Below are positions 4,386-9,339 of a DNA stretch of 64,000 bases, one piece after another. The notes beneath the pieces are model-generated. The model did no database searches, was not told the DNA's origin, and was given only the letters and a program-made list of their open reading frames with translations. Origin of the DNA: an uncultured delta proteobacterium (GTDB lineage Bacteria > Desulfobacterota > RBG-13-43-22); the NCBI GenBank assembly GCA_963743305.1, contig CAVUPH010000039.1:1-64000 (forward strand), written 5' to 3'. A program made the translations under genes and the position numbers. Positions within the stretch are counted from its first letter, which is position 1. The number at the start of each line of letters is the position of its first letter.

Positions 4386-4607
4386 CTATATCTTCTCGAC
4401 TAGAATGACCTTATCCCGGCTTTTCTCACCCCGGATGATGCGGATTTCGCTTTTGCGAACGTTCAGGTATTCGGCCAGAATTTTGATCAGGGCTTCGTTG
4501 GCCCGGCCTTCAATCGCCGGGGCGGTAAGATAAACCTTGAGTCGGTCTTTCTCGACAACCACCTTGTTTTGTTTGGCTTTGGGTATTACCCGGATGGAAT
4601 GGCGCAT
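4386..4607 (-). CDS. DUF167/YggU family protein
   Basis: VIPKAK...LKVYLTAPAIEGRANEALI...IIRGEKSRDK. Confidence 0.9.
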   Translation of the reverse strand: MRHSIRVIPKAKQNKVVVEKDRLKVYLTAPAIEGRANEALIKILAEYLNVRKSEIRIIRGEKSRDKVILVEKI

Positions 4608-4609
4608 GG

Positions 4610-4711
4610 TTTAATACGAAAATAGGGCACAGGGTATAAGGTTCAAGGTATAAGGTTTGGAGAATACCATTTTAATGCTTGGTGGGTGCCCCGCGGGGCA
4701 TGTGGGTTTAG
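4610..4711 (+). mobile_element. Asymmetric-end intergenic element
   Basis: ttaatacgaaaatag...attttaatgcttggtgggtgccccgcggggcatg. Confidence 0.55.
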
Positions 4712-4891
4712 TATGTAAATAAGCCTCTATGACCTGCAATAAGGCCAATAATCAATTGTCAATTTTCAATTGATTATTGATTATTGATATCCTGCGACTA
4801 AACAGTTGTCTCGCCCCTTTTATTTTTATGCTACGGGGGTACCCACCAGGGGCCTAGTGTTTAACTCGGGGCTAAAATACCATTTTTCCCC

Positions 4892-4919
4892 TTGACATTC
4901 CACCAGGATCATTTAAATT
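4892..4919 (+). promoter_or_regulatory. Sigma70-like promoter of the small-peptide gene
   Basis: TTGACA (4892) + 16 nt + TAAATT, about 40 nt upstream of ATG 4962. Confidence 0.55.
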
Positions 4920-4961
4920 TTAATATAACAAACATCGCACGAAGCGAGAAAGGGGCCGGTC

Positions 4962-5024
4962 ATGAAGATCCGCAAAGTGGTCAAGGTATCCAAAGGTCTT
5001 TGCAAGTGTAAAAAGACCTGCTAA
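4962..5024 (+). CDS. Putative RiPP precursor peptide MKIRKVVKVSKGLCKCKKTC (20 aa)
   Basis: RBS gagaaagggg, ATG...TAA, C-terminal CxCxxxC; followed by a terminator and then a radical SAM/SPASM operon. Confidence 0.75.
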   Translation: MKIRKVVKVSKGLCKCKKTC

Positions 5025-5042
5025 AAGAATTTTACTATTTCA

Positions 5043-5078
5043 AAAAAAGGCCGATAGTTGATCTGTCGGCCTTTTTTA
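5043..5078 (+). terminator. Rho-independent terminator between the peptide gene and maturase genes
   Basis: aaaaaggccgatag-ttgat-ctgtcggcc-tttttt. Confidence 0.85.
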
Positions 5079-5107
5079 TTCCAAACCCTAAATGAGATGG
5101 TTTCGCA

Positions 5108-5467
5108 ATGCCCAAAACCGATTTTCAAAATTATATCTGCCGGCCCTTCTGCGATTTTTTCAAGCCGGAAGTCAAGGAAGAACTGACTTGCCGGGGGGCG
5201 CTGCTGGTGGAAGACCTGGTCCGGCGCCGACGTCTCATCCCCGGAGACTTCCAGAGTCTGGAAAAAAGCGAATCGTTATTCCCGGGCCAGGAGGCCGATT
5301 TGGAAGCCGCTGTTTGCCGGGGCTGTCCCTTCCAAGCCGAAGATTGTGATTTTATGTCCGCCAATCCGCCGTCCGACTGCCGGCCCTGCGGCGGATTGCT
5401 TCTCCTGCGGCAGCTCAAGAAAAAAGGGCTGATCACCATCCCGGACCTATTCCATGACGACGAATGA
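5108..5467 (+). CDS. Cys-rich hypothetical protein (8 Cys), overlaps the rSAM start
   Basis: CRPFC...C...CRGCPF..DC...CRPCGG; 14-nt overlap with the next gene. Confidence 0.75.
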   Translation: MPKTDFQNYICRPFCDFFKPEVKEELTCRGALLVEDLVRRRRLIPGDFQSLEKSESLFPGQEADLEAAVCRGCPFQAEDCDFMSANPPSDCRPCGGLLLLRQLKKKGLITIPDLFHDDE

Positions 5468-6629
5468 TTGGCAGGAATCCTTCCTCTCCTTGCGTCCCCG
5501 GGTTTTTCTCAAACGCCTGGAACAGCCCTATCTTTATCACCTGGACCGGGATGAATTGTACGAAATCGACGAACAGGCCCTTCTTTTCTTAAGCCTTTGT
5601 GATGGAACCGCCCCAGGAAAATCCCTGACCGGCGATGCGGAATTCGTTTCTTTTTGTCTGGAGGAAGGGCTCTTGGAAACCCACACCCAACCGATCCTCA
5701 AGAACGTTTCCATCGGAGAAGCCCCCGTTCCTTCTCTGCGGTACCTGGAGCTGCAACTGCTCCACCAATGCAATCTACGCTGTCGACATTGCTACCTGGG
5801 TCCACCCCGCCCCGGGCGGTTGTCCTTGGAAGAGGCCGTCGCCATCACCCGGGAATTTGCCGCCCGGGGCGGCTTGCGGCTTTTGATATCCGGGGGCGAA
5901 CCCCTGCTTTATCCCGAACTGCCCTCCTTCCTGGCGCAGACCCAGGGCCTGGGCATCCGTCGTATTCTCTTAACCAATGGGACCCTGCTCACTACGGAAA
6001 GCCTCCTCCAACTTCAGGTGGAAGAGATCCAGGTCAGCCTGGACGGCTGGCGCAGGGGTCACGAAGCTATTCGGGGTGTGGGGACCTTTGATCAAACCCT
6101 AAAGGGTATCCAGGCCGCCCGGGAAGCCGGACTGCCCATCGCCATCGCCACCATGGTTCATCGGAAGAACCTGGGTGAATTCGATCAACTGGCCCGTCTG
6201 GTAAAAGAGATCGGGGCTGTTGAATGGGGAGTGGATGTGCCCTGCCTGGCAGGTTCTTTGAAAGAACATTCCGATCTACTGGTCCCTTACGAAGAGGCCG
6301 TCCCCTTTCTAAATTTTTCCTTTGGGGGGGGCTATCACGGCTCCGCGGATGGATATGCCTGTGGACGCCATTTGCTGACGGTGTTACCTGGCGGGCAGGC
6401 GGTAAAGTGCGGCTTCTATGAAGAGCAGATCCTGGGAGATGCTCGCCGGGGCCTGATCGAATGTTGGCTGAAGCTTCAACATATCCCGCTGAAAAAACTG
6501 GAATGCCGGGGGTGTCCGGCACTCGAGGAGTGCGCCGGGGGATGCCGTTACCGGGCCGATCATCCTTTCGGTCGGGACCCGCTGATGTGCGCCCTGTACG
6601 GACAGGCGGAGAATAAACCAACACATTAG
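5454..6629 (+). CDS. Radical SAM/SPASM domain maturase with N-terminal PqqD/RRE-like region
   Basis: CNLRCRHC, SGGEP, TNG, SLDG; SPASM cysteines ACG...VKC...CRGC-x5-C-x3-C...MC; N-terminal LYHLDRDELYEIDEQALLFLSLCDG. Confidence 0.92.
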   Translation: MTTNDWQESFLSLRPRVFLKRLEQPYLYHLDRDELYEIDEQALLFLSLCDGTAPGKSLTGDAEFVSFCLEEGLLETHTQPILKNVSIGEAPVPSLRYLELQLLHQCNLRCRHCYLGPPRPGRLSLEEAVAITREFAARGGLRLLISGGEPLLYPELPSFLAQTQGLGIRRILLTNGTLLTTESLLQLQVEEIQVSLDGWRRGHEAIRGVGTFDQTLKGIQAAREAGLPIAIATMVHRKNLGEFDQLARLVKEIGAVEWGVDVPCLAGSLKEHSDLLVPYEEAVPFLNFSFGGGYHGSADGYACGRHLLTVLPGGQAVKCGFYEEQILGDARRGLIECWLKLQHIPLKKLECRGCPALEECAGGCRYRADHPFGRDPLMCALYGQAENKPTH

Positions 6630-6663
6630 GTGCTTACATCTGTCAAATTGACAAGAGGACCCG

Positions 6664-6801
6664 TAAATCCGAAATCCGAAGCACGAAATCCGAAACAGGC
6701 ACGAAGATCCAAAATCCAAATGATCAAAACAAAAACGTTTCAAATTTTGAAATTGGATCATTTGAATTTGTTTCGAGTTTCGAAATTCGGATTTCGGATT
6801 T
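6664..6801. repeat. Heptamer-periodic inverted repeat (AAATCCG/CGGATTT)
   Basis: aaatccgaaatccgaagcacgaaatccgaaac ... gtttcgagtttcgaaattcggatttcggattt. Confidence 0.75.
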
Positions 6802-6852
6802 GGCCCAAAAAGTCAAATTGTTAAGGTTAGCTATTTAAGGAGGTCTAACCAA

Positions 6853-7536
6853 GTGGGTAAAATATTAGTCACCGGCGCCACCGGCACCATCGGCAGTCAG
6901 TTGGTGCGGCGGCTCAAAGAAAAGAACCTGGAGGTCATTGCCGGGGTCAGCAGCCTTTCCAAGGCCGGACGCTTCTCCAAACAGGGCATCGATACGACCA
7001 TCCTCAACTTTGCCCAACCCGATTCTCTGGAATCGGCCTTTGAGGGGGTCGATCGTCTATTTCTTTTGCTGCCCCTGGCGAAACCCATATGCAGAACTAC
7101 CTAAATTTTTTCGGAGGGATGATCAAGGACCAACAGTCCATCTTCCTGCCCCAGGGCCAGGGCCGGATCAGTCTGATCGACGTCCGAGACATCGCCGCCG
7201 TGGATGCTGAAATCCTGACCGCCCCCGAAAACCATTGGCAGAAAGCCTATGACCTGACCGGTCCGGAGGCGTTAACCAACGAGGAAATCGCCCGGATCCT
7301 CCCCGGGTCATGGGGAAAGCCAATCACCTCTGTGGATATCGACGAGATTAACCGCCCGCCAGGCCATGGCCCAGAGGGGGATACCGGATTGGAATATCCG
7401 ACTGTTGGAAAGCCTGAACCGCCGTATCAAGCTGGGGATGACGGCTGAAGTCACCAACTGGGTCCGGATGATTGCCGGGAGACAGCCGACAACCTTTGAA
7501 GAATTTGCCCGGGATCATGCGGATGCCTGGAAATAA
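6853..7536 (+). pseudogene. NmrA/SDR-like NAD(P)H-binding oxidoreductase with internal deletion and frameshifts
   Basis: ILVTGATGTIG; jumps from LLLPLAKP to MQNYLNF (central part missing); IDVRDIA, YDLTGPEAL; ends EFARDHADAWK*. Confidence 0.75.
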
Positions 7537-7673: not shown

Positions 7674-9339
7674 ATGATCTCTAGCCGCCACCTTCACCTT
7701 TTGTCCTATTGTCTTGCTGTTCTATTGTCTAATCCCTCAATTCTCCTGGGGTTCTACTCCCGACACCTCTTTTTGTACCGCTCCGGAAAACCTATTAGTC
7801 CTTCGGCTTTATTATCAATCGCCGAAGAATCTCAAAGCCGTCGCCGCCCAATATGATATCTGGGAGGCCCATCCCGAAGAGGGCTTTGTGGTCATCGGCA
7901 CCCGCTGCGGGGAATTGGAAAAAATCAGCGGCCAAGGCTGGACGGTGGAAATCGAACCAACCTTGACTCGGGAGACCAGGGCCAGTCTGCTCGGAATTCC
8001 TAAATTCCCCTGTTATCGGAGCGTGGAAGAGACCTTCGCGGTCCTTGAAAACCTGGCCGCCGACTATCCGGCCTTAACCGACCTCATCACTATCGGTGAG
8101 AGTTGGGATAAGAGCACCTCCGAAGGACCTGCAGGATTCGATTTACAGGCCCTCCGGATAACCAATAAGCAGATACCAGGACCCAAACCGGTTTTTTTCC
8201 TGATGGCCGCCATCCATGGCCGTGAATTGACCACCTCGGAAACCGCTCTCCGTTTAGCCGAAACCCTGTTGCAACAGTATGGGGTCAACCCTGAGATCAC
8301 CCTGCTCCTGGATTATCAGGAAATTCAGGTGGTCCCCCTGATGAACCCCGACGGCCGAAAGTGGGCCGAACAAGGTTATTTTTGGAGGAAAAATACCGAT
8401 CCCCTCTGGGGGTGTACCTTTCCAAACTATGGGGTCGATCTGAATCGCAACCATTCCTTCCACTGGGGAGGCGCCGGCGCCGCTCCCTGCGATGAAATCT
8501 ATCAAGGACCGGCGGCGGCTTCGGAACCGGAGACCCAGGCCCTGCAAAATTATGTTCGCCTCCTTTTTCCGGATCAGCGCGGTCCTTTGGATACAGATCC
8601 CGCCCCGGTAGACACGGCCGGCATCTTTGTCACCCTCCATTCCTACGGCAAATTGGTTCTTTGGCCCTGGGGCTGGACCGATCAATTCCCGGCTCCCAAC
8701 GACGCTCAACTCCAGGCGATCGGCGTTAAACTGGCCTCCTTCAATCACTATACCCCCCAGCAATCAAGCCTTCTGTATCCCGCTACCGGGACTTCCGATG
8801 ACTGGGCCTATGGCGAACTGGGGATAGCCTCTTTTACTTTTGAAATGGGAACCACATTTTTCCAGGAATGTTCGAGTTTTGAAGCCGCTATCTGGCCGGA
8901 CAATTTGAAAGCCCTGCTTTATGCCTTCAAAATCGCCTCCGCACCCTATCGCCTGACTTACGGCCCGGATGCCTTGTCCCCCCTGGTCAATCCCCCTTCG
9001 GGGAAACAGGGGGAACCTCTTGAACTGACCGCTCTGATCTCCGACCAGCAGAATGGAGGTCGTTCCCTCCAGCAGGCGGAATATTTCATCCTCTCCGAAC
9101 ATCAGGCAAATCCCCCCGGCACTCCCGGGACCGGACTACCCCTGACGCCCACCGACGGTCAATGGGATAGCCCGATTGAAACGGTCAGGGCCGTCATTGA
9201 TACCGCCCATCTGGTCCCCGGGAATTACTTGATCGCCCTGCGGGGCCAGGATGCGGATGGAAATTGGGGCCCGCTCACCGCGACTGCCTTGCGGATTCGC
9301 TATGACTACCAGTTATTTTTCCCCATCTTCTTGAATTAG
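7674..9339 (+). CDS. Secreted zinc carboxypeptidase, peptidase M14 (signal region frameshifted)
   Basis: HGRE, NPDG, GVDLNRN, LHSYG, FTFE motifs; C-terminal Ig-like domain and YQLFFPIFLN tail. Confidence 0.9.

Follow-up and report, generated by a model that had tools for sequence, protein, structure and literature searches.

A candidate peptide-modification system, apparently undescribed, pairing a 20-residue cysteine-ending peptide with a radical SAM/SPASM enzyme in an uncultured delta proteobacterium

The peptide gene and its linkage to the enzyme

The window analysed here is a stretch of 64,000 nt from an uncultured delta proteobacterium of the Desulfobacterota (assembly GCA_963743305.1, contig CAVUPH010000039.1, positions 1 to 64,000, forward strand). 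This report concerns a small system of two or three genes within it, namely an open reading frame (ORF) of 63 nt for a 20-residue peptide, a gene for a cysteine-rich protein, called the helper below, and a gene for a radical SAM/SPASM enzyme. Radical SAM/SPASM enzymes with peptide-binding domains have yielded several new classes of natural products as well as the redox cofactors pyrroloquinoline quinone (PQQ) and mycofactocin. A first-pass annotation of the window had picked out the three genes and proposed that the enzyme modifies the peptide. The genes are confirmed, and the interpretation as a SPASM peptide-modification system with an RRE-like domain is supported; the 20-residue product is probably the dedicated substrate of the enzyme. 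The system looks as if it had gone undescribed, and the peptide gene appears never to have been annotated. The features of the locus are as follows.

4892..4919, + strand: promoter-like site of sigma-70 type (TTGACA at 4892-4897, 16-nt spacer, TAAATT at 4914-4919; score 10/12)
4946..4955, + strand: Shine-Dalgarno region, GAGAAAGGGG, with AAGGGG at 4950-4955, 6 nt before the ATG
4962-5024, + strand: peptide gene, 63-nt ORF, 20-residue product MKIRKVVKVSKGLCKCKKTC
5042..5078, + strand: intrinsic-terminator-like hairpin (A-tract, 9-bp GC-rich stem at 5049-5071, 5-nt loop, U6)
5108..5467, + strand: helper Cys protein, 119 residues, 8 Cys of which 7 are invariant
5454..6629, + strand: radical SAM/SPASM enzyme, 391 residues; its start overlaps the helper ORF by 14 nt and lies 430 nt 3' of the peptide gene
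5454..5723, + strand: predicted N-terminal RRE-like peptide-binding domain, residues ~1-90 of the enzyme
5769..5792, + strand: CxxxCxxC radical SAM cluster motif (C106, C110, C113), invariant in 57 sequences
6360..6590, + strand: SPASM-type auxiliary cluster region (C303, C319, C351, C354, C360, C364, C379), all invariant in the 57

The peptide ORF with its three C-terminal cysteines stands exactly where it had been proposed, and so do the TTGACA site, the purine-rich ribosome-binding site and the strong terminator. A degenerate DNA pattern of the peptide family matches the window once and none of 100 shuffled versions, and by the same pattern the genome of the window holds a single copy. The product would be divided into an N-terminal recognition segment, MKI(K/R)KV.K, and a C-terminal CKCxx(S/T)C. 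A purine block of the AGGAGG/AAGGGG type is found in the 18 nt 5' of the start in nearly all of 67 peptide genes, as judged by eye and uncounted. The 83-nt spacer after the peptide gene folds at -28.3 kcal/mol (z = -5.77), and none of 200 shuffles is as stable; a consensus scan of the region lists no terminator at 5049-5071. In 57 of these 67 cases a hairpin of -8 kcal/mol or better with a U-rich tail lies at most 110 nt 3' of the gene, compared with 37 of 308 random windows of 110 nt taken from these loci, and the stem sequences vary by lineage. Such a terminator would yield more peptide mRNA than enzyme mRNA. An RNA-library contig of 151 nt spans 4865-5015 with one synonymous difference; it records presence in an RNA library only, and DNA carry-over is possible. 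The same library gave no contigs over 5036-6523, which is not used as evidence, since contigs cannot show absence or level. No sequencing run was found with half or more of the sampled words of the stretch, and Rfam gave no match at gathering score in 4400-7000. An AT-rich palindrome with a 13-bp stem (CAATAATCAATTG...CAATTGATTATTG) occupies window positions 4746-4779, about 110 nt 5' of the promoter-like site; it is found in one relative (G002) and not in two others (G001 and G004).

Linkage of the peptide gene to the enzyme gene was assessed in 80 loci, the best 80 of at least 555 contigs that encode a relative of the enzyme in a one-genome-per-species collection. These were picked by enzyme similarity alone; their enzymes are 42-95% identical to that of the window, and by record title they belong to Desulfobacterota, Spirochaetota, Nitrospirota, Nitrospinota and Chloroflexota, with Desulfonema, Desulfuromonas, Trichloromonas and Desulfomonile relatives among them. 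A search for a short basic peptide ending CxCxxxC beside homologues, suggested with the first-pass annotation as a check, found the peptide gene in 68 of the 80. In 63 loci a same-strand ORF ends in C.C...C-stop, and all 63 read M.I.K....CKC...C; only C.C...C-stop had been demanded, and hence this set is free of pattern bias for I3 and K15. Five further loci, of Desulfuromonas/Trichloromonas type, end in ...CKCSKSC plus one extra residue. At least six of the remaining 12 are missing the flank that would hold the gene: two have no upstream DNA, in two the sequence breaks off immediately 5' of the helper gene, and three stop directly after the enzyme gene, in a lineage that has its peptide gene 3' of the enzyme.

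The amino-acid sequence of the peptide is retained while its DNA changes. Between the window and a genome with a 70% identical enzyme (G004) the peptide is identical, with 7 synonymous and 0 non-synonymous changes, and the stop codon also differs. A protein search returned 2344 enzyme relatives at E<=0.001 among 7999 candidates, all under generic names. Among the genomes of 60 relatives, six have full-length enzyme orthologues, and the peptide gene lies beside the enzyme in all six, encoding an identical peptide in three and a variant such as MKIKKIERTQRGLCKCKSSC in the other three. The 47 pattern matches found in a sample of 401 genomes from across the phylum vary mostly at third codon positions (by eye, uncounted).

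In these 401 genomes the peptide pattern occurs in 42 and a reversed-pattern control in none. The enzyme family, called at E<=1e-60, occurs in 44, and all 42 genomes with the peptide pattern carry it. With the variant MTIKKATKKASITCKCKASC of one genome (G179), which falls outside the search pattern, 43 of the 44 enzyme genomes have the peptide; in the other (G237), which carries the enzyme without the peptide pattern, the enzyme gene starts at base 3 of a contig. Genomes that have the peptide gene on a separate contig (G072, G172) or carry two copies of it (G141, G224) likewise retain the enzyme. In the inverse test, a metagenome collection was searched with the peptide DNA pattern alone; at least 120 stretches matched and 80 loci were kept, of which 56 adjoin the enzyme family or the helper, 12 end early and 12 are unlinked. 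The precursor gene is genetically coupled to the enzyme gene (68/80 loci; 42/42 and 43/44 genomes), as in systems for peptides that are made on ribosomes and then modified post-translationally (RiPPs). Thus, the linkage in the loci, the synonymous-only change, the inverse test and the phyletic profile establish the 63-nt ORF as a real gene that is functionally tied to the enzyme.

Some loci depart from the single linked copy. Tandem peptide genes about 70-170 nt apart lie 5' of the helper and enzyme genes at L142:3296-3492, L161:806-960 and G235:C80:20614-20839. An unlinked copy (L114:2441-2503, L171:8144-8206) is placed between hypA/hypB-like ORFs on one side and ORFs resembling hypC, a hydrogenase maturation protease and the [NiFe]-hydrogenase large subunit on the other; these names are resemblances read from translations, and the two loci count as one observation because they have the same synteny.

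The enzyme, the helper protein and the predicted complex

The only Pfam match in the 391-residue protein is the radical SAM core (PF04055, 82.4 bits against a cut-off of 29.5). Membership in the radical SAM superfamily is shown by the invariant CxxxCxxC and by a core whose alignments to radical SAM structures exceed Z 15 in many cases. The first-pass annotation had described an overlapping gene with this motif and a full set of SPASM cysteines; the overlap of 14 nt and the invariance of every one of these cysteines in 57 homologues bear it out. The SPASM pattern (C-x15 containing G-x4-C, C-x2-C-x5-C-x3-C, C) is present, and these residues would bind two auxiliary 4Fe-4S clusters. The Pfam SPASM model matches 1 of the 57 members, at E 0.014, and it is motif and fold that underlie the PqqD-like and SPASM domain calls. 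The 25 best of 71 NCBIfam matches all fall short of their cut-offs, the top one being AhbD (91.8 bits vs 500). The NCBIfam viperin model scores 54.1 bits against a cut-off of 180, and the best match to the PADLOC pVip models (66.8 bits) covers only the generic radical SAM core (residues 100-258).

In the AlphaFold2 (AF2) model of the enzyme (pLDDT 93.6), the N-terminal domain has strands at 17-21, 25-29 and 34-37 with helices after them. An RRE consists of a three-stranded sheet and three helices and takes up the leader of the precursor as a further strand. Residues L22, E23, Y28, D33, L35, C49 and F64 of this domain are invariant in the 57 homologues. The structural matches of the model (root-mean-square deviation, rmsd, where given) are as follows.

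SkfB (6efn): Z 27.2, rmsd 4.1, 321 aligned, model residues 15-368
SuiB (5v1s): Z 25.3-25.7, rmsd 3.7, 348 aligned, model residues 10-384 against SuiB 1-439
anSME: Z 24.2, model residues 94-387
CteB: Z 23.9, model residues 93-383
PqqE (6c8v): Z 21.0

The Foldseek ranking agrees. Most structural alignments begin at model residue 91, and those of SuiB and SkfB begin at 10-15. The N-terminal ~90 residues of the predicted model thus form part of a full-length match to two RiPP maturases with N-terminal peptide-binding domains, which is in keeping with the PqqD/RRE-like segment proposed earlier. A PDB sequence search with the enzyme profile found matches to the radical SAM core (~90-275) and none to the N-terminal domain.

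Co-folding of the enzyme with the peptide, another check suggested at the outset, gave a complex score of 0.86, against 0.02 for the best of three controls. The mark for this score is reached by 58 of 80 solved complexes and by 2 of 110 mismatched pairs; the runs share at least 69% of contacts, and the pLDDT of the partner is at least 62. In the predicted interface, residues 1-12 of the peptide are in contact with residues 26-27, 33-45 and 59-71 of the enzyme, so that the N-terminal half of the peptide rests on the N-terminal domain. Residues 2-6 pair with the enzyme strand 34-39 at the lowest expected error, 0.5-0.8 A. Cys14 and Cys16 are predicted to contact residues 261, 289-297, 303, 319 and 361-364, which make up the SPASM-region loop and its cysteines. 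The predicted mode is the one expected of a leader on its recognition domain with the core at the active site.

The helper had been described as an eight-cysteine ORF. Eight cysteines are present, but seven of them are conserved in 54 homologues (C11, C15, C28, C70, C73, C80 and C94, the last followed by GG) and Cys91 varies; the protein behaves as a subunit or domain. It is encoded in 69 of the 80 loci, and in 14 of the 80 it is fused in frame ahead of the enzyme, giving ORFs of 500-546 residues. In a second locus type, the peptide gene lies 3' of the enzyme gene and its product reads ...[S/T/L]TCKC..., and a 54-residue protein with three cysteines is encoded directly 5' of the enzyme in 5 of 5 genomes checked. 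In sequence it corresponds to residues 1-48 of the helper, with an hhalign probability of 96.3%. Such replacements, of 54-86 residues with three cysteines, lie at L223:730-990 and L224:1558-1722 (minus strand). In loci of Nitrospirota and Chloroflexota type that retain the peptide, the helper was not detected within 4 kb. Because of the fusions and the modular reduction to a three-cysteine form, the helper is probably a subunit or domain of the enzyme rather than its substrate.

The AF2 model of the helper is all-helical (pLDDT 83.1). Neither the helper nor the peptide matches Pfam, and NCBIfam gives only a sub-threshold zinc-ribbon hint for the helper (17.2 bits vs 31.3). Foldseek against the PDB returned no match at E<=0.001, a wide VIA search reached no more than Z 4.4, which is under the noise guide of that tool, a PDB sequence profile gave 0 matches, and ESM Atlas returned unnamed clusters only. 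The domain is thus one for which these searches detected no structural relative; their failure does not make its fold new.

The peptide as substrate, its possible product and alternative readings

In the proposed mechanism, the N-terminal domain of the enzyme would grip the MKI[K/R]KV.K half of the peptide as an added beta-strand, and the C-terminal CKCxx(S/T)C would be fed into the active site beside the SPASM auxiliary clusters, where 5'-deoxyadenosyl-radical chemistry would modify it. The helper would serve as a subunit, probably metal- or Fe-S-binding. One or more intramolecular cross-links involving the cysteines would be the most likely product. By analogy with known enzymes, cross-links from Cys to carbon are a first guess, and thioethers, as suggested in the first-pass annotation, are pure conjecture. 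In CteB, a substrate Cys is bound at an open iron site of one auxiliary cluster. Position 19 of the peptide accepts S, T, G and A, and therefore a side-chain-specific acceptor at this position is unlikely. Since the three cysteines are at the extreme C-terminus, any acceptor residues would precede them or sit between them; Lys15 is invariant in the unbiased 63-locus set.

Among known systems, the radical SAM RiPP maturases SuiB (precursor SuiA, streptide) and SkfB (precursor SkfA) have the same three-part full-length architecture and a short precursor gene beside the enzyme gene, and they bind the peptide via the N-terminal domain, which is predicted here. However, sequence identity is 18%, the peptide is unrelated, has 20 residues, lacks a cleavable leader that could be recognised and is shared with little change by several phyla, a seven-Cys helper is present, and no exporter or protease travels with the system. 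The NCBIfam StsB and AlbA families score 73.7 bits (cut-off 625) and 56 bits (cut-off 850) on the window enzyme. CteB with CteA (thermocellin/SCIFF) and StsB with StsA, whose enzymes form thioethers from Cys to carbon, resemble it in a seven-Cys SPASM region and a Cys-rich core. In contrast to the substrates of CteB and StsB, the window peptide has its three cysteines at the extreme C-terminus, and the SCIFF maturase model is not among the 25 best of the 71 NCBIfam matches. For PQQ (PqqE/PqqD/PqqA) and mycofactocin (MftC/MftB/MftA), a short, conserved and usually single-copy precursor is processed by a SPASM enzyme using a PqqD-like domain, and the product is intracellular, with no exporter. 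In its near-identity across phyla, single copy and lack of export genes, the window peptide resembles PqqA and MftA more than bacteriocin precursors. The enzyme belongs to neither family, with 64.4 bits for PqqE (TIGR02109, cut-off 381.35) and 64.1 bits for MftC (TIGR03962, cut-off 265). Unlike in those pathways, the peptide-binding domain here is fused rather than separate, and no dependent dehydrogenases or cofactor-processing genes are consistently linked.

In StsA, closely spaced cysteines occupy positions 2, 4 and 6 (PMC10288494). In Methanococcus voltae, CrpC, a radical SAM/SPASM enzyme with an RRE, cross-links the Cys-rich protein CrpA (PMC13692751), and in both cases a radical SAM/SPASM enzyme, here with a predicted RRE-like domain, adjoins a gene for a Cys-rich product. 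CrpC belongs to TIGR04463, and CrpA is described there as a large repeat protein with a C-x-x-Q/D motif, whereas the Cys-rich protein in the present system has 119 residues and forms a single chain with the enzyme in 14 of 80 loci, the conserved partner being the 20-residue peptide.

Taken as a whole, the system appears, by analogy, to operate in the manner of RiPP or cofactor systems built on an RRE-dependent radical SAM enzyme, with an unusual accessory domain and cofactor-like conservation. No description of the peptide, the helper or the enzyme clade was found in the literature searched or in curated models, although survey supplements covering ~15,000 radical SAM proteins may list the family. 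The first-pass annotation had likewise not recognised the peptide as belonging to a described family, and NCBIfam, Pfam and the literature searched gave no match to one. The family is nevertheless sizeable, by its at least 555 contigs and its presence in 44 of 401 sampled phylum genomes. It has stayed out of view, in that all 5 peptides tested are absent from a collection of 15 billion proteins, the helper and a cupin-like associate described below are named only 'hypothetical' in it, and the Pfam PqqD and SPASM models each match 1 of 57 enzymes.

Other explanations of the same observations were weighed. SkfB, SuiB and CteB, the nearest structural matches, mature secreted RiPPs, and a Peptidase_M14 gene lies two genes 3' in the window, so that one may think of a secreted antimicrobial or signalling RiPP of the sactipeptide/ranthipeptide type, processed and released by generic peptidases and exporters. 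However, the peptide is nearly unchanged across five phyla (by record titles), most genomes have one copy, 20 residues leave little room for leader plus core, and the 80 loci have no protease, ABC exporter or immunity gene in common, the M14 gene being shared by close relatives only; we consider this explanation improbable. The peptide may instead bind the enzyme as a regulatory, structural or metal-delivering subunit while the enzyme acts on another molecule. Co-occurrence and predicted binding fit a subunit equally, the CKCxxSC end offers possible ligands for a metal or cluster, and the cupin-like protein, with a His-rich tail in 34 of its 36 occurrences in the 80 loci, would suit such a role. 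Against this, the full-length fold matches to RRE-bearing maturases and the predicted position of Cys14 and Cys16 beside the SPASM cysteines look substrate-like, the conserved terminator, with its excess of peptide over enzyme, suits a substrate better than a stoichiometric subunit, and unlinked and extra peptide copies occur. A subunit role is therefore also judged unlikely.

Enzymes that cross-link Cys-rich proteins are known, as QhpD with QhpC or CrpC with CrpA, and the 119-residue helper rather than the 20-residue peptide could be the substrate in the same way. Its gene overlaps that of the enzyme, suggesting translational coupling, and SPASM enzymes that install thioethers in whole proteins are documented (PMC13692751). 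Yet the in-frame fusion to the enzyme N-terminus, the reduction to the 54-residue three-Cys form in another family, the loci that keep the peptide with the helper undetected within 4 kb, and the placement of CrpC in a different family make it very unlikely that the helper is what the enzyme modifies. The order of short ORF, terminator and genes is also that of an attenuator, in which the ORF would be a cis-acting leader peptide for the downstream genes with no function of its own as a peptide, and Rfam has a weak Thr_leader match at 4903-5079 (29.5 bits, E 0.0073). This score is to be compared with a gathering score of 55, the amino-acid sequence is kept through synonymous changes, and the peptide gene lies 3' of the enzyme in the second locus type or even on another contig. 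Gene order already contradicts the attenuator, which hardly merits further consideration.

Several points also weigh against the preferred reading, that the 20-residue peptide is the dedicated substrate of the enzyme, or against parts of its evidence. The case for modification of the peptide is comparative and predictive. Of the 68 metagenome loci that could be judged, 12 have the peptide gene apart from the enzyme, and so do two genomes (G072 and G172). The invariance of M1, I3, C14, K15, C16 and C20 in a 110-sequence alignment is partly circular, as the search pattern or regular expression demanded these residues. The Pfam PqqD model matches its single member at E 0.037, and the N-terminal domain was assessed within the full-length model. 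The complex tool was calibrated without partners under 30 residues and was supplied with author-made alignments; moreover, a peptide-bound structure of the same enzyme class has been solved (SuiB with SuiA, 5v1t), so that the pass may reflect likeness to such complexes and not this particular pair. As to chemistry, reactions that need a free C-terminal Cys are disfavoured because the Desulfuromonadales-type loci add a residue after the last Cys; MftC, for its part, needs a C-terminal Tyr. The promoter scan is at chance level, with 2 sites found vs 2.3 expected in shuffled sequence. Three relatives (G002, G001 and G004, down to 70% enzyme identity) retain the block between ~4878 and the ATG while the DNA 5' of it diverges, and for this reason the promoter-like site is better supported by the comparison of relatives. 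The RNA-library contig starts at 4865, 27 nt 5' of that site, which is therefore no more than a candidate for the transcript start.

If the peptide is modified as proposed, its product is more likely to be intracellular, cofactor-like or metal-binding, than a secreted antibiotic, because its sequence hardly changes from phylum to phylum and is not accompanied by a conserved protease, exporter or immunity gene. A 20-residue peptide kept near letter-for-letter across phyla points to a housekeeping-type function in anaerobes, not to chemical warfare. A metal-binding or redox role is plausible, if speculative, given three thiols in seven residues, a His-tailed partner and a Cys-rich helper. One may go further, tentatively, and imagine that the modified peptide serves anaerobes inside the cell as a peptide-derived cofactor or as a prosthetic peptide that binds metal, much as PQQ and mycofactocin serve other organisms. 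In that case radical SAM cross-linking would pre-organise CKCxx(S/T)C so that its three thiolates form a metal or redox site, the helper would act as an Fe-S or metal scaffold domain of a kind not seen before, and the cupin-like protein would be a partner that handles metal. This fuller picture is possible rather than probable.

Neighbouring genes

The first-pass annotation had seen no adjacent protease or exporter and had taken this as a sign of an intracellular product. As a statement about the window it does not strictly hold, since a Peptidase_M14 zinc carboxypeptidase gene (191.8 bits) occupies 7714-9339 on the same strand, two genes 3', and is also present in one relative (G001). As a statement about the system it stands, as no protease, transporter or immunity gene recurs among the gene clusters of the 80 loci. 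The carboxypeptidase was accordingly rejected as the protease of the system, being common to close relatives only.

A cupin-like protein of ~110 residues is found in 36 of the 80 loci, ending in a GGHSxxGHHH tail in 34 of these 36. In the sample of 401 genomes it is present in 25 of the 44 that bear the enzyme, vs 10 of the 357 others. Its name is tentative because the matches are weak (Cupin_2 at E 0.0015; PDB at E 0.06 or above). It was rejected as an obligate member, since a genome of the same genus (G003) has the cupin-like protein without enzyme or peptide; judged by gene content, it is an enriched associate and not a core part. The genome of the window has its own copy on another contig (G000:C42:72425-72751; L222:1498-1827, minus strand), adjoining an ORF whose translation resembles a metallo-beta-lactamase-fold hydrolase.

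Other genes recur less often: a second radical SAM/SPASM gene in 17 of the 80 loci, DUF364/DUF4213 in 8, and PCC, truncated CysRS-like and methyltransferase genes in 6 each. They are confined to sub-lineages, and the window has none of them. An expanded cluster of Desulfobacterales type (L077:2110-7728) contains PCC/DUF296, DUF364/DUF4213, the peptide, the helper, the enzyme, a second radical SAM/SPASM protein, the cupin-like protein and a CysRS-like protein of 417 residues, which scores 292.8 bits vs a cysS cut-off of 340.

Directly after the stop codon of the enzyme gene, an imperfect palindrome of ~137 nt (6665-6801) is made up of repeats of the AAATCCGAA type; its arms, of 33 nt, show 85% complementarity. 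The bin 6648-6700 has very high summed contig depth in all four runs examined, and the repeat is therefore common to many organisms. Beyond it, an NmrA/SDR-like gene (6853-7448) is split into pieces of 83 and 119 residues with the middle missing, and a single ORF of 288 residues stands at this site in G002 and G001; the split is an internal deletion or an assembly error. Far 5' of the system, at 827-1862 of the window, two overlapping + strand ORFs of 122 and 257 residues presumably encode an antitoxin-like protein and a GNAT acetyltransferase, which they resemble.

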